From: an uncultured bacterium
GTDB lineage: Bacteria; CSSED10-310; CAZUFC01
Direction of reading: 5' to 3'
NCBI GenBank assembly: GCA_964619725.1
Contig: CAZUFC010000017.1
Coordinates: 1 to 64,000 of the forward strand
Length of the DNA: 64,000 bases
In this document: piece by piece, positions 22,454 to 45,449 of the stretch
Position numbering within the stretch: the stretch's first letter is position 1
How the letters are laid out: each line of letters starts with the position of its first letter
Translations under genes and position numbers: made by a program
Notes under the pieces: generated by a model
Told to the model about the DNA's origin: nothing
The model's input: only the letters and a program-made list of their open reading frames with translations
The model's database searches: none

Positions 22454-22534
22454 TGCGAGAGGGGGGACTCGAACCCCCACGGTTTTACCACTGGAACCTA
22501 AATCCAGCGCGTCTGCCAGTTCCGCCACCCTCGC
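22454..22534 (-). tRNA. tRNA-Leu (anticodon TAG)
   Basis: GCGAGGGTGGCGGAACTGGCAGACGCG..CTGGATTTAGGTTCCAG..GGTTCGAGTCC..CTCTCGCA; variable arm; CCA not encoded. Confidence 0.95.
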
Positions 22535-27001: not shown

Positions 27002-27073
27002 TGGGCGATACAGGATTTGAACCTGTGACACCCGCCGTGTGAGGACGGTGCTCTCCCCCTGAGCTAATCGCCC
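27002..27073 (-). tRNA. tRNA-Val (anticodon CAC)
   Basis: GGGCGATTAGCTCAG..CCGTCCTCACACGGCGG..GGTTCAAATCC..ATCGCCCA. Confidence 0.95.
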
Positions 27074-38491: not shown

Positions 38492-40126
38492 ATGACGGAA
38501 AACAATGACGGGAAATTTTACAAAAGCAAAATAAAATCTGCGGCTAAACTAGCAACCGCTTTTGCGCTCATTATCCTGACCGCGCTTTTCGCTTTCGGTT
38601 CTTCGCTGAACAACGGGTTCGTCTATGATGACGAATACCTGATCCAACCGGGACGCTACATGCTCAGCAATATCGAACCGAATGTCTTCTTTTCAGATCA
38701 ATATTTCGGCTGGTTCGGCGAAGCTTCCTACCGGCCCGTCGTCAGCCTGTCTTATATGATCGATTATCAATATTCCGGTCGTCTGCCTGTGGGATACCAT
38801 CAGACGAATTTTCTTTTGCATTGCGGGACAGCGCTGCTAATTTTTATTCTCTTAAGAGCTATAAAAATAAATATGCCGGGAGCTCTGGCTGGTACGCTGA
38901 TCTTTGCAGGATTACCGGCGGCTTCAGAAGCCGTCAATGGAATAGCTTTTCGGGAGGACCTGCTGGCAGCCTTATTCAGTATAGCCGCTATTATATGCCT
39001 TGTCAGAAGCATCATGACGAAACATCTGCGATGGATCATACTTTTCACGCCGCTTATGATCCTGGCTCTGTTTTCCAAGGAATCGGCTTTCATGCTGCCG
39101 GTAATGGGAATAGCCGTAATGCTTCTGCTCAAAAACCCGAAAGACAGACCGGGCAAAAAATTTTACCTTATCTGGACGATCACCATGTCTGTCGTAACCG
39201 GTCTTTGTCTTCTGGGCTGGTTTCTGCTGATGAAGGATAATGCTTTCTTCCTGCCCAACAAAAACCCAGAACTAAATCAAAGAATCTTCGAAATACCCTG
39301 CCTGTTCTCTTTTTACTTTCAAAAACTGTTCGTGCCCTCCCGTATCGCAGTTGAACTGCCGATGCCCGAGAACCGAAAAGCCGCTTTGTATGTGTCCATC
39401 CTCTTCCTGACCGGCGCTCTCATTGCCGGATTCATGAATAAAAAAGCTGCCCTGTTTTCGCTTTGGTTCGTCATCTTCCTTATCCCTGTATTACAGATCA
39501 TTCCTTTAAAAAATAAGATCGGTCTGCGCTTTGTTTATTTACCCGCAGCAGCCTACGCCGGATGGACTGCACTGATCTTTCAACGTCTATGGAACGACGG
39601 AAATAAAATAAAACGATTAGCCGTCGTCGCCCTTATCGTTATCGTCACATTTCAATGCGGCATTTCAAGAGCCGTCACCGAAAGCTGGGAAAATAACCTG
39701 GCCCTGTGGTCTGTCGCAACGAAAATCAATGCTGACAACGCCCGAGCGGCCTACAATATGGGTAAATATTCGGTCGAAGCAGGATTCATCAAACTGGGAG
39801 AAAAATGGCTTACTAATGCTGTGGAAATCGATCCCGACTCACATTTTTTACTTTTTCAATTAGGCTATTTCTACGAAACCAAGCAGAAAAACAAGAAAAA
39901 AGCCGCTGAATTTTATAGAAAATCCCTTGAATTAAAACCGGATACTTTTCAGCCGAACTTCCAGTTGGGACGGCTACTCTTCCTCAATAATCAAGTGGAA
40001 AAAGCGGAAAAATACTTGAAGAAAGCCCATGCTTTGAAACCGAACTGGATTACCGTTAACGTATGGCTGGATTACGCCCTTGATGAAATTGAAAAAAAGA
40101 AGAAAGAATCAAAAAATGAAAATTAG
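38492..40126 (+). CDS. TMTC-like (DUF1736 + TPR) GT-C membrane glycosyltransferase
   Basis: [42 protein letters not shown], TPRs. Confidence 0.85.
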
Positions 40127-41216
40127 TAAAAACCGCTACCTGTCCGGTGAAGAAATCCTTCCGCCGGCGATCTCTCCGCAAATCAGCGCCGCTGAACTCA
40201 TCGACAATCAATTTACTGCATACAACGCCCGACGTTTAAATGAAATTTGCCGACTTTTCACGAAAAAAATACTGAATAACAAAACTACAATAGGACTGTC
40301 GCTGTCAGGTGCGTTGACCCCTGCAGGATTGGGCATTTCCTGTATCATTCCTCTTATGCGGTACGGAATGATAGACTGGATCGTATCAACGGGAGCGAAT
40401 CTCTATCACGACGCGCATTTCGCTATCGGTAAATCTTTGCATAAAGGAAAAATTTCCTGGAATGACGTTGAACTGAGAAAAAACAACGTGGTCAGAATAT
40501 TCGACGTTGTGTTCGATTATAATGTCTTGCTCGATACGGACGCCTTCTTTCGGCGAATAATTAAACAACCTGAATTTCAACGGGAAATGGGCTCCGCAGA
40601 ATTCCACCGCCTCTGCGGTCAATACCTGATAGAACGAGAAAAAGAACTTGGACTGAAAAAAGTCTCAATCCTGGCCGAAGCATGCCGGCTTGACATTCCC
40701 GTTTTTACCTCCTCCCCAGGCGACAGTTCAATCGGAATGAATATAGCCGCTGCCGAACTGGAAAACAATAAACTGAAAATTAATTCGTCCGTTGATGTAA
40801 ATCAAACCGCTGCCATCGTCTATAATGCAAAAAACAACGATGAATTCTCGGCAGTCGTTATATTGGGCGGCGGCTCGCCTAAAAATTTCATGCTCCAAAC
40901 AGAACCTCATATCCAGGAAGTCCTGGGACTAAAAGAAACAGGTCATGACTACTTCATCCAGATAACGGATGCCAGACCTGATACCGGCGGTCTTTCCGGC
41001 GCCACTCCATCAGAAGCCGTTTCCTGGGGAAAAATCGATGCCGATAAATTGTCCAACACCGTCGTCTGCTACTCCGATACTACCATTGCACTCCCTCTTT
41101 TCGTCGCTTACGTCCTCTCAAAACAAAATCCCAGAAAACCTTCACGGATTTATAAAAATCTGGATAGCTTTACCGAAAAAATGAAAAAGGCGCTGAATAT
41201 CAAAAAACGAGACTGA
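40116..41216 (+). CDS. Deoxyhypusine synthase-like protein (probable homospermidine biosynthesis)
   Basis: [43 protein letters not shown] with catalytic Lys. Confidence 0.9.
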
Positions 41217-41339
41217 GCAAACAGGGATTACACTTTTGGGAATCATTTCTTCTCTTTTCTGTGATGATCAGATATGTCCCGGGCTGAGGTGTCTTTGTAA
41301 TTGTTTCTGAAAATCCGGGCGTTTTGACCATCGATCCCC

Positions 41340-41607
41340 CAAAAAAACGCTGTATATTTCTATGTTTCATACTTCCTGAGCGGCAGCATATCTCTGAAAA
41401 AGCCTGAATGTGATCATCAACGCTTCCTTGCGCAACCCTAGCGCCACGCACCTCACCCCCTTTTCACGGGCCCTCCCCCGCTCGCTTTCAGATTCGGATC
41501 ATCCACCACCTCGGGCAAACCTTGCCTCTGAAACAGGTCATGCTTCAGAAACATGCCCCCTGCCTTCCTTGCGAGCGAAAGTTCCAAGATTCTGGATCCG
41601 AATCTCA
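41340..41607 (-). ncRNA. Candidate sigma54-dependent structured sRNA (or small-ORF transcript)
   Basis: Downstream of a sigma54 motif; several complementary segments and repeated CGCAAGGAAG; no long ORF; boundaries approximate. Confidence 0.4.
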
Positions 41608-41617
41608 TTCAGCTTGA

Positions 41618-41872
41618 AGCACCTTTCATGCCAAAAATAAGTTTTCTTTAAAAACAATAAGTTATATTTTTCTCTTGCCTTGCCGTATCTCCGAAAATTC
41701 AAAAAATTTGAATTTTTTTCAAATTTTTTGAATTTCATTCCAGCCGCTAATTCAGTCAACCCAAAAAAACAATTCCATAATATCCTTTAAACACAATAAA
41801 TTAAATTCTTCGATAATTCCATAGAAACGGCGGTTTTTACCGTAATCCAGAGTTCAAATTTTTTGAATTTCA
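41618..41872 (-). promoter_or_regulatory. sigma54 promoter with IHF-like site and upstream activator-like repeats
   Basis: TTGGCATGAAAGGTGCT (GG-N10-GC, 41634-41618); IHF-like AAACAATAAGTTA at 41652-41664; TTCAAATTTTTTGAATT repeats at 41696-41712 (inverted), 41718 and 41853. Confidence 0.65.
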
Positions 41873-42101: not shown

Positions 42102-45100
42102 ATGCAGCGAATAATTTTTCTGGCGATTTTCCTGGCGCTGATGGAATACTGTTTATTTTCAAGGGAATGTTCTGGAGTAGAATCGTACGATCAATCATCA
42201 TATTTTATAAGTGATGCCGAGCCTGTGCCGTTGGAGAAACCGATTTCAAATCCTCTGGAATATTCGACGTCGAGGATAGGCTTGGACATTGACGGTTTCA
42301 AACTTCCTCGAGGACATGAAGGGAGGTACAGGTTTTCATGCCGATTTCCGGTCATTGATTATGTTTCCGAGCGTCCATTGTATATGAAACAATGGACGGA
42401 GGAACAGGCGGATTTGCTGATGAGTTCTCACAGTGAGAAGGGCATAGAGGTTGTAGCGGACGCTTTGACTATTTTGTGCGGAGGTAAAAACGAGACTGAC
42501 GTTGAACCTGCCGAATTAAAAAAGGAGAAGGAATTATTTCGCGATAAGCTTCAGGCGTCGTCTTTTAAGAGCTGGTATCAGGACGCTCTGCTGGAGCTTT
42601 ACGAGAGTTATTTGAAAGCGTGGAGATTGACGAAATACGGGCGCCGGGGATTGAGCGAAGAGGATTTGTCGTTTTTCAATAAGAATCCTGGTTATTATAT
42701 CGCTCCGACGGAAGAAAAGATGACGTCATTAACGGGGAATGTCGAGACGCATTTTCGATATATCGAATGCGCCAGGCGGGCGGATTATGCCTGCATATTC
42801 GGAGGAGCTGAAATCGTGTCGAAAGCGGTGATGGCTTATATAGAAAGGGTGGAATCACATTCATCGAGTGATTTTTGTCGTGGTGATGCGAGCAAAAGCT
42901 TCCGTTTAGAATATGAATCGCCGGCGGGACTCATAAAAGTATCGGGTAAAGGAAACGACGAACACAACGAAGATGCGGTTTTTCTGATCGATTTAGGAGG
43001 CGACGACGTATACGTCAACAATGCCGGAGGCGTTTGCAATCTGAAACAGGCGGTCTGTTTATGTATTGATCATGCGGGAGACGACGACTATATTTCTTAC
43101 AAAGGTCGTTATATGCAGGGATTCGGACATCTAGGAACAGGAATGCTGATTGATTTGTCTGGAGATGACCGTTATATGGCGGGACATTTTTCGCAGGCGG
43201 CTGGGATAATGGGAGTCGGAGTTATCTGGGACAAAGAGGGTGATGATCAATACATCGGGCAGACTTTCGGACAAGGGGCCGGTATGTTCGGACTCGGGAT
43301 GCTCCTTGATGATGCTGGAGAGGATTTTTATGATATTGCGAGTTTAGGCCAGGGAGCAGCGACTACATTAGGATTGGGTATTCTGTCTGATTTAACGGAC
43401 GACGACAGATACCATCTTGCGGTCGGAAGAGACAAGGATTCTCTGGGGGGAATGCCCGGATACGGCCAGGGAGGCGCTTTATCCTTTCGTCACTATCCCT
43501 GGGAAGGCGAATTGACGCCTTACGGCGGAGCGGGAATGCTCATAGACGCCAGAGGGAACGATCGATACCGCACAAAAGGATGGTGCGATCAGGGAGGCAG
43601 CTACATCATGTCCCTGGGAGCGTTGGTCGATTATGAGGGAAATGATCATTATTCGGCTCATACAGGCCAGGGAAGCGGAATACATATTACTAACGCTATC
43701 CTGGTCGACCGGAAAGGACATGACGTGTATGAGGGGAAATTTCGATGCGGCGGTTCCGGAGGAGACCGTTCACCCGGATTTTTGATCGATTATCAGGGCA
43801 ATGACGTTTACCGATCCAGGACTTCATCTTACGGCACAGGCTGCAAACCCTTCTGTTTTTCTCTGTTTGTCGACTATTCGGGCGACGACGTTTACATATG
43901 TCCTCGGCCGGAAGATGAGATCACTTTCAACAACTGGGAAAGCTTCGGCGGAGTATGGCCGGAATCGGAACCTCACATCTGGCCTTACGCCGTTTGTCTG
44001 GATTTAAGCGGCGACGATGATTATCAGGTCCGCAATCGTTCGAATAACTCCGAAACACACAGTTTCGGGCACGGAATTCATCTGGACACGGAATTTCCCT
44101 CCAGCGACATCATAGGAACCCTTCCCTGTCCGCTGGAACCTTATCGCTCGTTTCCACTTCCTCTTAACGTTAAAAATTCCGAATATTACGAAGACATAAA
44201 AGCGCTTCAAAATCCCCATACTTTTATCCGTTTTCAGACCATAGGCCGCATAACGAACAGCGGTACCGATGTTTTGCCGTCTCTTGTCGACGCTGTAATT
44301 AATTCTGAACATGTTCAATTCAACAGAGACGTTCTCGAATGCATTCATATTTTCTGTTCATCCCGGATAATCAGCGAAAATGATGAAAAAACGATAGCGA
44401 AGCTGCTGAAAGCAGCGTCGCCGGAAATCAGGATCATCACAGCCGATAACTGCGGAATTTGGAAATGGACATCCTCTGAACATGCACTTATGGAATCTTT
44501 AAAAGATGAAAACGCTGAAGTTCGCAGATTTGCGTTGAATTCGCTGATCAGCCTGGAATCCGATAAAGCATCATCCTTCGTCAGAGAAAGCCTGATAAAG
44601 GATTCGTCAGAAAACGTCAGACGAACGGCCGTTCGATATATTCAACTGATATCGGAAGAATTCGATCCTTTTCCTTACCTGGCGGATGCTCTGCTGGATG
44701 ATCCGGCATCGTCCGTAAGAGTCGCTGCGGCTGAGGCGCTGGGTTATCTGCAGGAGCAGCGCGCTGTTGAGCTGCTCAAGGATGCTGCGGAATCATACGA
44801 TGTATACCTAAAACGTGCGGCGGCAAAAAGTCTGGGGGAGCTGGGAGAGATCGAGGGCATTGAAATTCTGATCGATTCACTCTCCTTTCCGTCCATTGAT
44901 GCGTTTTTCAATTACGACCGCAACATCCCAAACTATATATCGGCATATGCCGGACATGACCTCAACGAGGATGAAAGATATGACAGAGAAAAGTGGCGTC
45001 AATGGTTCCAAAAAAGTAAAGATCAAATTGATCTGAAGGAAAACGTAAAAGCCTACAGGGCATATCAGGATACGGCAAAGGCAGTGCGAGACATTACAAT

Positions 45101-45449
45101 TAAACGGAAAATCGAAAAATATGAAGCATTTTTATCGAATTTTCCTGATTATAATCGCGCTCGAAAAGCCCTGGCGAAAATTCTGAATGAAGCCGCCTGG
45201 AAAATGGTCACGGCTCCCGAAAATTCGAAGGATCATGATCCGGAGACAGGCCTGAAATACGCTCTGCGCGCCGTTGAACTGGAACCTCACATCAATTACA
45301 TCGATACTCTTGCTGAAGCTTATCTCGCCGCCGGCAAAACGGCTGAAGCGGAAGAATTATGCCTGGAAATGCTGGAAAAGCATCCGGATGAAAAGATGTT
45401 TCAAGACAGGTTGGATCGTTGCAGGAAAACCAGTGAAAATGATTTATAA
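42102..45449 (+). CDS. Large exported protein: 12 DxxG(D/N)DxY repeats + HEAT repeats + TPR
   Basis: Signal peptide; LIDLGGDDVY-type repeats; VRRFAL/VRVAAAEALG HEAT units; DTLAEAY TPR. Confidence 0.8.
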   Translation: MQRIIFLAIFLALMEYCLFSRECSGVESYDQSSYFISDAEPVPLEKPISNPLEYSTSRIGLDIDGFKLPRGHEGRYRFSCRFPVIDYVSERPLYMKQWTEEQADLLMSSHSEKGIEVVADALTILCGGKNETDVEPAELKKEKELFRDKLQASSFKSWYQDALLELYESYLKAWRLTKYGRRGLSEEDLSFFNKNPGYYIAPTEEKMTSLTGNVETHFRYIECARRADYACIFGGAEIVSKAVMAYIERVESHSSSDFCRGDASKSFRLEYESPAGLIKVSGKGNDEHNEDAVFLIDLGGDDVYVNNAGGVCNLKQAVCLCIDHAGDDDYISYKGRYMQGFGHLGTGMLIDLSGDDRYMAGHFSQAAGIMGVGVIWDKEGDDQYIGQTFGQGAGMFGLGMLLDDAGEDFYDIASLGQGAATTLGLGILSDLTDDDRYHLAVGRDKDSLGGMPGYGQGGALSFRHYPWEGELTPYGGAGMLIDARGNDRYRTKGWCDQGGSYIMSLGALVDYEGNDHYSAHTGQGSGIHITNAILVDRKGHDVYEGKFRCGGSGGDRSPGFLIDYQGNDVYRSRTSSYGTGCKPFCFSLFVDYSGDDVYICPRPEDEITFNNWESFGGVWPESEPHIWPYAVCLDLSGDDDYQVRNRSNNSETHSFGHGIHLDTEFPSSDIIGTLPCPLEPYRSFPLPLNVKNSEYYEDIKALQNPHTFIRFQTIGRITNSGTDVLPSLVDAVINSEHVQFNRDVLECIHIFCSSRIISENDEKTIAKLLKAASPEIRIITADNCGIWKWTSSEHALMESLKDENAEVRRFALNSLISLESDKASSFVRESLIKDSSENVRRTAVRYIQLISEEFDPFPYLADALLDDPASSVRVAAAEALGYLQEQRAVELLKDAAESYDVYLKRAAAKSLGELGEIEGIEILIDSLSFPSIDAFFNYDRNIPNYISAYAGHDLNEDERYDREKWRQWFQKSKDQIDLKENVKAYRAYQDTAKAVRDITIKRKIEKYEAFLSNFPDYNRARKALAKILNEAAWKMVTAPENSKDHDPETGLKYALRAVELEPHINYIDTLAEAYLAAGKTAEAEELCLEMLEKHPDEKMFQDRLDRCRKTSENDL

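Follow-up and report, generated by a model that had tools for sequence, protein, structure and literature searches.

Qrr1-5 of Vibrio and CrcZ of Pseudomonas are small RNAs whose transcription depends on sigma54 and an activator, and the Qrr RNAs are encoded as dispersed, redundant copies. The RNA family described here, one copy of which lies in the 64,000-nucleotide stretch of DNA that was analysed (the window), is likewise predicted to be sigma54-driven and, like Qrr, is multicopy and dispersed, but it has no Rfam match, a different structure and a different motif, and it occurs in a genome with no canonical Hfq over the cut-off. GlmY of Enterobacteriaceae, as presented in the part of PMC4152352 used here, combines a sigma54 promoter, three activator boxes and IHF sites with a multi-stem small RNA that acts as a protein decoy, and its GlrR site (TGTC-N10-GACA) resembles the box TGTY-N10-RACA that accompanies our RNA in Acidobacteriota. 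The same excerpt describes GlmY as a single-copy gene beside glrK-glrR that controls glmS, whereas 9 to 57 dispersed copies are seen here, with neither an Rfam match to GlmY/GlmZ nor a glrK-glrR neighbourhood. Pxr of myxobacteria is also sigma54-driven and built of multiple stem-loops, with paralogues, in hosts without Hfq; in the sections of PMC5568312 that cover it, however, the paralogues are tandem, beside the activator nla19 and tied to development, whereas our RNA has no Rfam match to Pxr and is not beside a sigma54 activator gene.

Two further systems are linked to competence. csRNA1-5 of Streptococcus are multicopy and additive (PMC4507080), and RocR of Legionella silences the DNA-uptake genes comEA, comEC, comF, comM and radC (PMC6744872); in the passages of these papers that were available, both repress competence by pairing with mRNA leaders. 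The window RNA differs in having activator boxes in common with competence genes and purine-rich loops without C/U-rich seeds. Because the boxes are common to both, the RNA would be induced together with the DNA-uptake genes, in contrast to RocR and the csRNAs. Competence that depends on rpoN is described, in the portion of PMC4371752 that bears on it, as acting via pilA and not via boxes at comEA, comM or radC. Finally, MITEs and REPINs, so far as the partial accounts used here go, resemble our elements in being dispersed, of high copy number and, in two carrier genomes (G041 and G450), sharp-ended, and this genome also has REP-like palindromes and Y1 transposases; they differ in that each of our units has a complete regulated promoter and that old copies keep compensated stems.

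The earlier note on this DNA had proposed a novel regulatory RNA transcribed from the minus strand, and all the motifs that it named were found at their given positions. The locus is laid out as follows.

41853..41872, no strand assigned: distal enhancer box, with a 13-bp core TCAA-W5-TTGA at 41854-41866
41695..41735, no strand assigned: proximal enhancer box pair, 20 bp apart, with cores at 41699-41711 and 41719-41731
41651..41664, no strand assigned: IHF-like site, some 50 bp ahead of the inferred start
41618..41634, minus strand: sigma54 -24/-12 motif TTGGCATGAAAGGTGCT, GG and GC at the correct spacing, in 9/9 copies
41452..41607, minus strand: predicted non-coding RNA of about 155 nt (model match 41452-41607)
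41586..41606, minus strand: 5' hairpin P1, in which 41606-41600 pairs with 41592-41586 in the window copy
41571..41581, minus strand: 5' strand of P2, CUUUCGCUCGC, with its partner at 41485-41476
41513..41558, minus strand: stems P3 (GGGCA/UGCCC) and P4 (variable), with the 3'-side bulge
41502..41515, minus strand: CCCGAGGUGGUGGA, covering the end of P3 and the first part of the purine-rich bulge, an identical 14-mer being present in Acidobacteriota copies
41490..41500, minus strand: segment complementary to 41595-41605, an alternative or crossing pairing
41468..41481, minus strand: invariant motif GYGGGGGAGGGCCC, which can fold into a GGG/CCC hairpin whose loop is GGAGGG, in 9/9 copies
41453..41554, minus strand: 33-aa ORF, rejected as a conserved product
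40080..41216, plus strand: deoxyhypusine synthase gene, convergent with the RNA, a neighbour only
42102..45449, plus strand: HEAT-repeat protein gene, divergent, a neighbour only

The GG/GC spacing of the sigma54 motif places +1 at 41607, and the ends of the RNA are accordingly a start derived from the -12 spacing and a 3' end set where conservation stops. The inverted repeat of the earlier note is present, but its arms are 18 nt long (41695-41712 and 41718-41735) and not 17, and it is better taken as part of three 13-bp palindromic boxes, the third of which stands another 135 bp upstream of the pair. The proximal pair is predicted to be the binding site of a sigma54 activator, and the third copy of the arm, at 41853-41872, is identical at 20/20 positions; such a third box accompanies all 22/22 paired box sites in the genome. 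The idea of a transcript free of ORFs was right for the conserved RNA, which has no conserved ORF, but not for the DNA downstream, where an 83-aa GTG ORF (41200-41451, minus) lies outside the conserved part.

BLAST and iterative profiles run on this genome showed that the window RNA is one of nine paralogues on eight contigs, 49-88% identical to one another, of which the window copy is the most diverged (49-63%). A covariance model, which was trained on those nine copies themselves, recovers the same nine at 102-159 bits with the next match at 15 bits, and a profile built from the other eight finds the window copy at E=7e-14 (leave-one-out). All nine are recovered by profiles of the leave-one-out or the joint kind. 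All nine keep the promoter layout, with boxes and sigma54 motif at equal distance from the conserved block. The IHF-like site, which had been noticed about 50 bp from the inferred start, has its core CAA-N4-TTA upstream of 7/9 copies vs 4.4% of AT-rich control windows, and under a relaxed pattern it is found in 9/9. The genome also carries rpoN, four IHF/HU-family genes and one csrA, whose presence was to be checked, and 37 strong activator-domain matches among 47 listed. The next long downstream ORF is convergent in six of the nine copies (in one, a doubtful 107-aa ORF intervenes), which argues that the copies are independent transcripts and not leaders; the neighbours of the copies are unrelated, and a riboswitch or 5' leader was rejected with a co-directional downstream gene in 3/9 copies only. 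DNA contigs from the sequencing runs held no variant letters and have no bearing on expression. The window element is very probably a transcribed non-coding RNA.

In the modelled fold, the copies begin with a 5' hairpin; then comes a long rod with interruptions, made of P2, P3 and the variable P4 and carrying a purine-rich bulge on its 3' side, and there is also a short 3' hairpin. In a model-fitted alignment of the nine copies, 87.7% of 300 alignment cells are paired and there are 24 two-sided changes; none of 500 shuffles reaches the paired fraction, the two-sided changes or the covariation score, and slid controls are 30-50% paired, with the reservation that the structure was drawn from the same sequences and that two of five covariation measures were not significant (63/500 and 57/500). 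Pairing varies by stem: 94.9% of cells in P1 (one compensatory pair in three copies, the window copy being the most altered), 82.6% in P2 (four pairs with a two-sided change), 98.1% in P3 (two compensatory pairs) and 70.4% in P4. Folding energy alone gives a weak signal (z=-1.64 for the 271-nt region), and the copies have modest z-scores that do not distinguish the strands (sense -0.6 to -2.6, antisense +0.2 to -3.4). The interleaved pairing that had been read as a possible pseudoknot, of AGAUUCGGAUC at 41595-41605 with GAUCCGAAUCU at 41490-41500, is an 11-bp crossing pair that holds up in three of the nine copies (p<0.001 in the window copy, p=0.02-0.03 in two more) and is not significant in the other six. 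As a competitor of the 5' hairpin, it can be no more than an alternative fold. A second hairpin of that proposal, CAGG..CAUGUUU, clashes with a conserved stem present in 9/9 copies and had to be given up. The conserved unpaired parts are purine- or G-rich, have no C/U-rich seed and resemble ribosome-binding sites, not their complement, features more in keeping with the binding of a protein than with the blocking of ribosome-binding sites.

Searches for described families were negative. Rfam 15 gave no match on the RNA in the window, at the eight paralogue loci or at 13 homologue loci, and the best score in the window (16.6 bits, below gathering) falls on the enhancer. The proposal of a non-coding RNA of no catalogued family, driven by sigma54, IHF and an enhancer, is supported by the absence of an Rfam match, the 9/9 layout, the presence of rpoN and IHF/HU-family genes and the covarying stems. 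6S RNA was rejected, the genome's sole RF00013 match lying elsewhere (contig C21), and so was a bacterial Y RNA, there being no TROVE/Ro60 gene in this genome. The family is not described in the main texts searched, a result to be read with the proviso that catalogues in supplements or subscription journals could hold it, and a 12-mer of the motif occurs in published texts only in an unrelated context. By its sequence and modelled fold, the putative RNA is a new family of a known broad kind.

The enhancer boxes connect the RNA with other genes. Pairs of TCAA-W5-TTGA in this genome number 22 at a 7-bp spacer vs 0-1 at each of nine other spacers. Nine of the 22 precede the RNA, six precede Y1 (HUH) transposase genes, and four stand singly before comEA-ssb, a DUF3006-like gene (28.2 bits, an assignment below cut-off) and the genes for an EF-hand and a beta-helix protein. 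Of the remaining three, two lack a promoter motif within 420 bp, and the third is followed, after about 1 kb and another gene, by the sigma54 motif of comEA-comEC. The genome's comM has a sigma54 motif without a box, and its radC has neither. The association with comEA was seen here first, and boxes at comEA elsewhere were then tested as a prediction. In 3/3 Acidobacteriota carriers, comEA has the same box pair as the RNA (TGTYKA-N6-TMRACA) together with a sigma54 motif, and three non-carriers have no such box pairs. The nine exact box pairs of the carrier G456 belong to eight RNA copies and to comEA, the sole protein gene among them; one G456 RNA copy lies directly upstream of comM. Among 11 box loci examined in the deltaproteobacterial carrier G041, nine drive the RNA, and from one of these nine a divergent radC is driven as well; of the other two, one serves comM and one is truncated where its contig ends. 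This gives a partial view of that regulon, since 63 further box matches exist beyond those listed; no stand-alone comEA match was found in G041. As judged from these shared boxes, the RNA is probably a member of a competence regulon.

Some observations on the other loci with boxes belong here. The comEA-comEC operon on contig C10 (L029:1409-3180) has a sigma54 motif, the nearest enhancer triplet has transposase-type flanks, and the gene between the two codes for 271 aa of no Pfam family. The six Y1 (HUH) transposase genes (C5, C12, C22 twice, C27 and C35; L028, L030-L033) carry the triple enhancer of comEA-ssb and a sigma54 motif, and they are possibly co-induced with DNA uptake. Two of the six are an identical tandem duplicate: on C22 (L031:741-4926), a 2.4-kb unit comprising the transposase, the enhancer and part of a neighbour gene is repeated without a difference, either in reality or as an assembly artefact. 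A REP-like palindrome with the core GGGTCAGAGCCC is present in 123 exact copies in the genome, often near Y1 transposases.

The motif GYGGGGGAGGGCCC also occurs in G041, G450, G456, G570 and G307. G041, a Deltaproteobacteria MAG, has 57 copies (control 0); 15 loci were read, and the 12 of them with upstream DNA have repeated boxes, different in sequence from those of this genome, and a sigma54-like motif, with the strict pattern matched in nine, and the 5' hairpin is followed by the motif at the same distance as in this genome. In the Acidobacteriota MAG G450 the 12-mer has 28 matches (control 6); 25 loci were read there, of which 24 form a single family. Across Acidobacteriota, the promoter-plus-motif pattern was found in 3/301 genomes (18, 9 and 1 copies, with one control match in total); these three carriers have orthologous loci in common and were counted as one lineage. 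The boxes differ in sequence among the three lineages, while layout and motif are the same. The 14-mer CCCGAGGTGGTGGA of the window copy recurs in two Acidobacteriota copies, a shared length that 200 shuffles did not reach (maximum 12). With an Acidobacteriota profile, 3/9 copies of this genome beat 100/100 shuffles, at low scores of 0.2-3.1 bits. With a G041 HMM, no copy of this genome beat all shuffles (best 1/100). Homology of the G041 RNA body is less sure because that body yields no profile signal and is missed by model R1, and the link to G041 is made by layout, the 14-mer motif and a 9-mer that is within the null.

A promoter-plus-motif scan of genome contigs produced 23 matches, two of them true (L192 and L201), both of which model R1 misses. 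BLAST over 40 other genomes gave only two weak matches, outside the RNA, and 13 genomes of the same phylum, searched by pattern and covariance model, gave six weak matches (E 0.003-0.4), none with promoter or boxes. An RNA-only pattern gave 68 metagenome and 49 viral matches, none better than E 0.11 or with promoter or boxes, and as this pattern demanded a stem that other lineages lack in that form, absence is not proven by it. The single match of the promoter-plus-motif scan in viral contigs looks like chance, the motif-rich genomes G181, G108 and G318 hold other repeats or chance matches without the promoter, and BLAST of the G041 RNA over 60 relatives gave nothing convincing.

Three elements in other genomes are recorded for comparison. 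In G307 (L238, L275-L277, L370), a conserved element of roughly 400 bp is present five times and ends in GGN repeats and the 14-mer motif; no sigma54 motif was found upstream of these, and it is possible that they belong to the RNA family. In G456, a pilin-like ORF (L362:445-966; so called by its N-terminal sequence, with no Pfam match) is divergent from an RNA copy with one changed base in the motif. The same-phylum genome G004 has inverted GTCCGG-N5-CGGAC box pairs about 275 bp apart (e.g. C16:16678, 16953; C108:522, 797), which are probably the ends of an unrelated repeat element.

The reading that we prefer, at a probability of roughly 0.4, is that of a sigma54-transcribed RNA of about 155 nt that would be co-induced with competence genes and act in trans as a protein decoy through its G-rich loops. 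One enhancer-binding protein would bind the boxes, IHF would bend the DNA between boxes and promoter, and sigma54 polymerase would fire all copies upon competence induction; the RNA dose would be set by copy number and, with many dispersed copies, would be large. Sequences like ribosome-binding sites may be mimicked by the GGAGGG loop and by the GGUGG/purine-rich bulge, and the RNA may in this way sequester a repressor or nuclease that otherwise keeps competence mRNAs or incoming single-stranded DNA in check; this last part is a guess, and the decoy mechanism taken by itself is put forward as a tentative proposal. A trans-acting decoy is favoured because the loops are like ribosome-binding sites, because tests of pairing and of G-quadruplexes fail generally, and because CsrA, Ro60 and Hfq-like proteins fail as shared partners. 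No partner protein common to the carriers was found among these candidates: Ro60, absent here, is not the partner, CsrA (csrA in 0/5 of the other motif-bearing genomes) probably is not, and an Hfq-like protein of 277 aa is present in only 1/5 others. The latter (L168:1459-2292, C35) matches Hfq at 24-25 bits, under the cut-off of 27, in a genome that is 90.9% complete; its look-alike clusters are mostly from Myxococcota and it has homologues in G004 and G041. With 1/5 other motif-bearing genomes positive and a non-carrier having it too, this tandem Hfq-like protein was rejected as a universal partner. Several findings speak against the competence-decoy reading, among them the modest z-scores, the two covariation measures without significance, the lack of a shared partner and the missing profile link to G041. 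In addition, up to 57 near-identical, sharp-ended copies resemble a mobile element more than they do a regulator, comM and radC of this genome are without a box, its comEA-comEC has the nearest box set about 1 kb off behind another gene, and the RNA was not found in 13 other genomes of its own phylum.

The RNA is likely an unrecognised part of natural transformation. A wider claim is more speculative and we hold it to be doubtful: a competence-induced class of structured RNAs that crosses phyla, is amplified to tens of self-contained copies, functions in transformation as a decoy or a recombination landing site, and marks a sigma54/enhancer competence programme that co-induces HUH transposases here. 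Its role might be that of a decoy that disarms a nuclease or repressor during DNA entry, or alternatively of a landing site for recombination that is opened by transcription, and the HUH transposases would act on incoming single-stranded DNA. The link to competence holds in three lineages with differing enhancers, which is hard to explain without a shared function, and none of the sRNA families compared has as many copies as the 9 to 57 seen here. The enhancer boxes outline what may be a sigma54-controlled competence regulon in uncultured phyla, and the invariant loop and boxes make the RNA directly testable in laboratory hosts.

First among the rivals is a DNA cassette that acts in cis or is selfish: enhancer, promoter and G-rich region would be copied as DNA and ride the competence regulon, and transcription would create an R-loop or a single-stranded hairpin at which local recombination or transposition becomes more likely. 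We rate it as unlikely. G041 and G450 have both undergone recent expansions. The 57 copies in G041 are 84-95% identical; many lie at contig ends, and they are sharply bounded and flanked by simple repeats. G450 has 28 motif matches vs 10 known copies in its relative G456. An expanded subfamily in G450 has a sharp right end, the reverse complement of which stands on the left in two copies; among the output listed for the MITE test, these two copies were the ones with inverted ends, and there was no clear duplication. Each copy keeps its upstream promoter, and copying would therefore be at the DNA level, and 6/9 Y1 transposases here bear the same enhancer. The copies in this genome tell a different story, since they are old (49-88% identical) and yet all keep promoter, boxes and paired stems, and no shared ends or target duplications were seen among the nine by eye. 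No transposase is driven by the enhancer in G456, nor was the enhancer seen ahead of the one Y1 gene that G041 has. G4Hunter scores exceed shuffles at p<0.05 in 0/35 copies, by which G-quadruplex enrichment was rejected, and GGTGGTGG is not over-represented here (90 vs 98.7 expected), by which a Chi-like over-representation was rejected. The cassette and the protein decoy are compatible and not mutually exclusive.

A base-pairing small RNA is quite unlikely. Its G-rich loops would pair with C/U-rich targets, either as a sponge of a repressing sRNA of the RocR/csRNA type or on competence mRNA leaders, with activation by opening a hairpin. The invariance of the 14-mer motif across lineages fits an invariant partner, and five related sRNAs control competence additively in the text available of PMC4507080. 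In Acidobacteriota, the motif region pairs with the genome's own tmRNA 3' end at p<=0.017 in 11/11 copies with a complete tmRNA end, an idea that was one among several tried. The same pairing reaches p<0.05 in 0/9 copies here and 0/6 in G041, pairing to the 46 tRNA/tmRNA ends of this genome is no better than in shuffles, complements of the motifs are not enriched in this genome, and canonical Hfq is missing above cut-off. An antisense action on tRNA/tmRNA ends was rejected as a general rule, being at chance level here and in G041. In the tmRNAs of G450 and G570 (L385, L386), this Acidobacteriota complementarity between the tmRNA 3' end and the G-rich 3' region of the RNA spans 11 bases.

Binding of CsrA, as in a sponge of the CsrB/RsmZ type, had been the function suggested for the GGA motifs, and it now appears very improbable. 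The genome has csrA, no copy is without a GGA, and one GGA lies in the invariant loop. All of the GGA motifs first noticed are present, but the second CGCAAGGAAG (the copies are at 41564-41573 and 41423-41432) and CAGGAAG (41372-41378), two of the three, fall outside the conserved RNA; copy bodies hold only 1-6 GGA, and the GGA of the loop is not conserved. The sole csrA sits in a flagellar flgL-fliW-csrA string, and the 0/5 count for csrA in the other motif-bearing genomes comes from MAGs that are all incomplete. A small-peptide gene, either the 33-aa ORF or a Gly-Gly-Gly-Pro frame across the invariant motif, has next to no probability: the ATG of the window copy follows a purine-rich stretch, and in the translated G041 copies no stop interrupts the motif frame across the RNA body, but the start is not common to all copies (ATG in 4/9, GTG in one), one ORF among the start-bearing copies ends after three codons and the others run in a frame unlike the window's, and the motif frame is broken by stops and frameshifts here and in Acidobacteriota, the third codon positions of the motif being invariant.

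A few features near the copies were noted in passing. A second IHF-like sequence seems, by eye, to follow the RNA end in about 4/9 copies (C135, C26, C9 and C185). An Acido-Lenti-1 match of 38 bits (gathering 37) lies about 270 bp downstream of the C185 copy (L185:1179-1233), and a gene for a 172-aa sigma-70-family factor is divergent from the C1a copy on contig C1 (L024:2937-3455). In the window itself, tRNA-Leu and tRNA-Val genes are located at 22454-22534 and 27002-27073.
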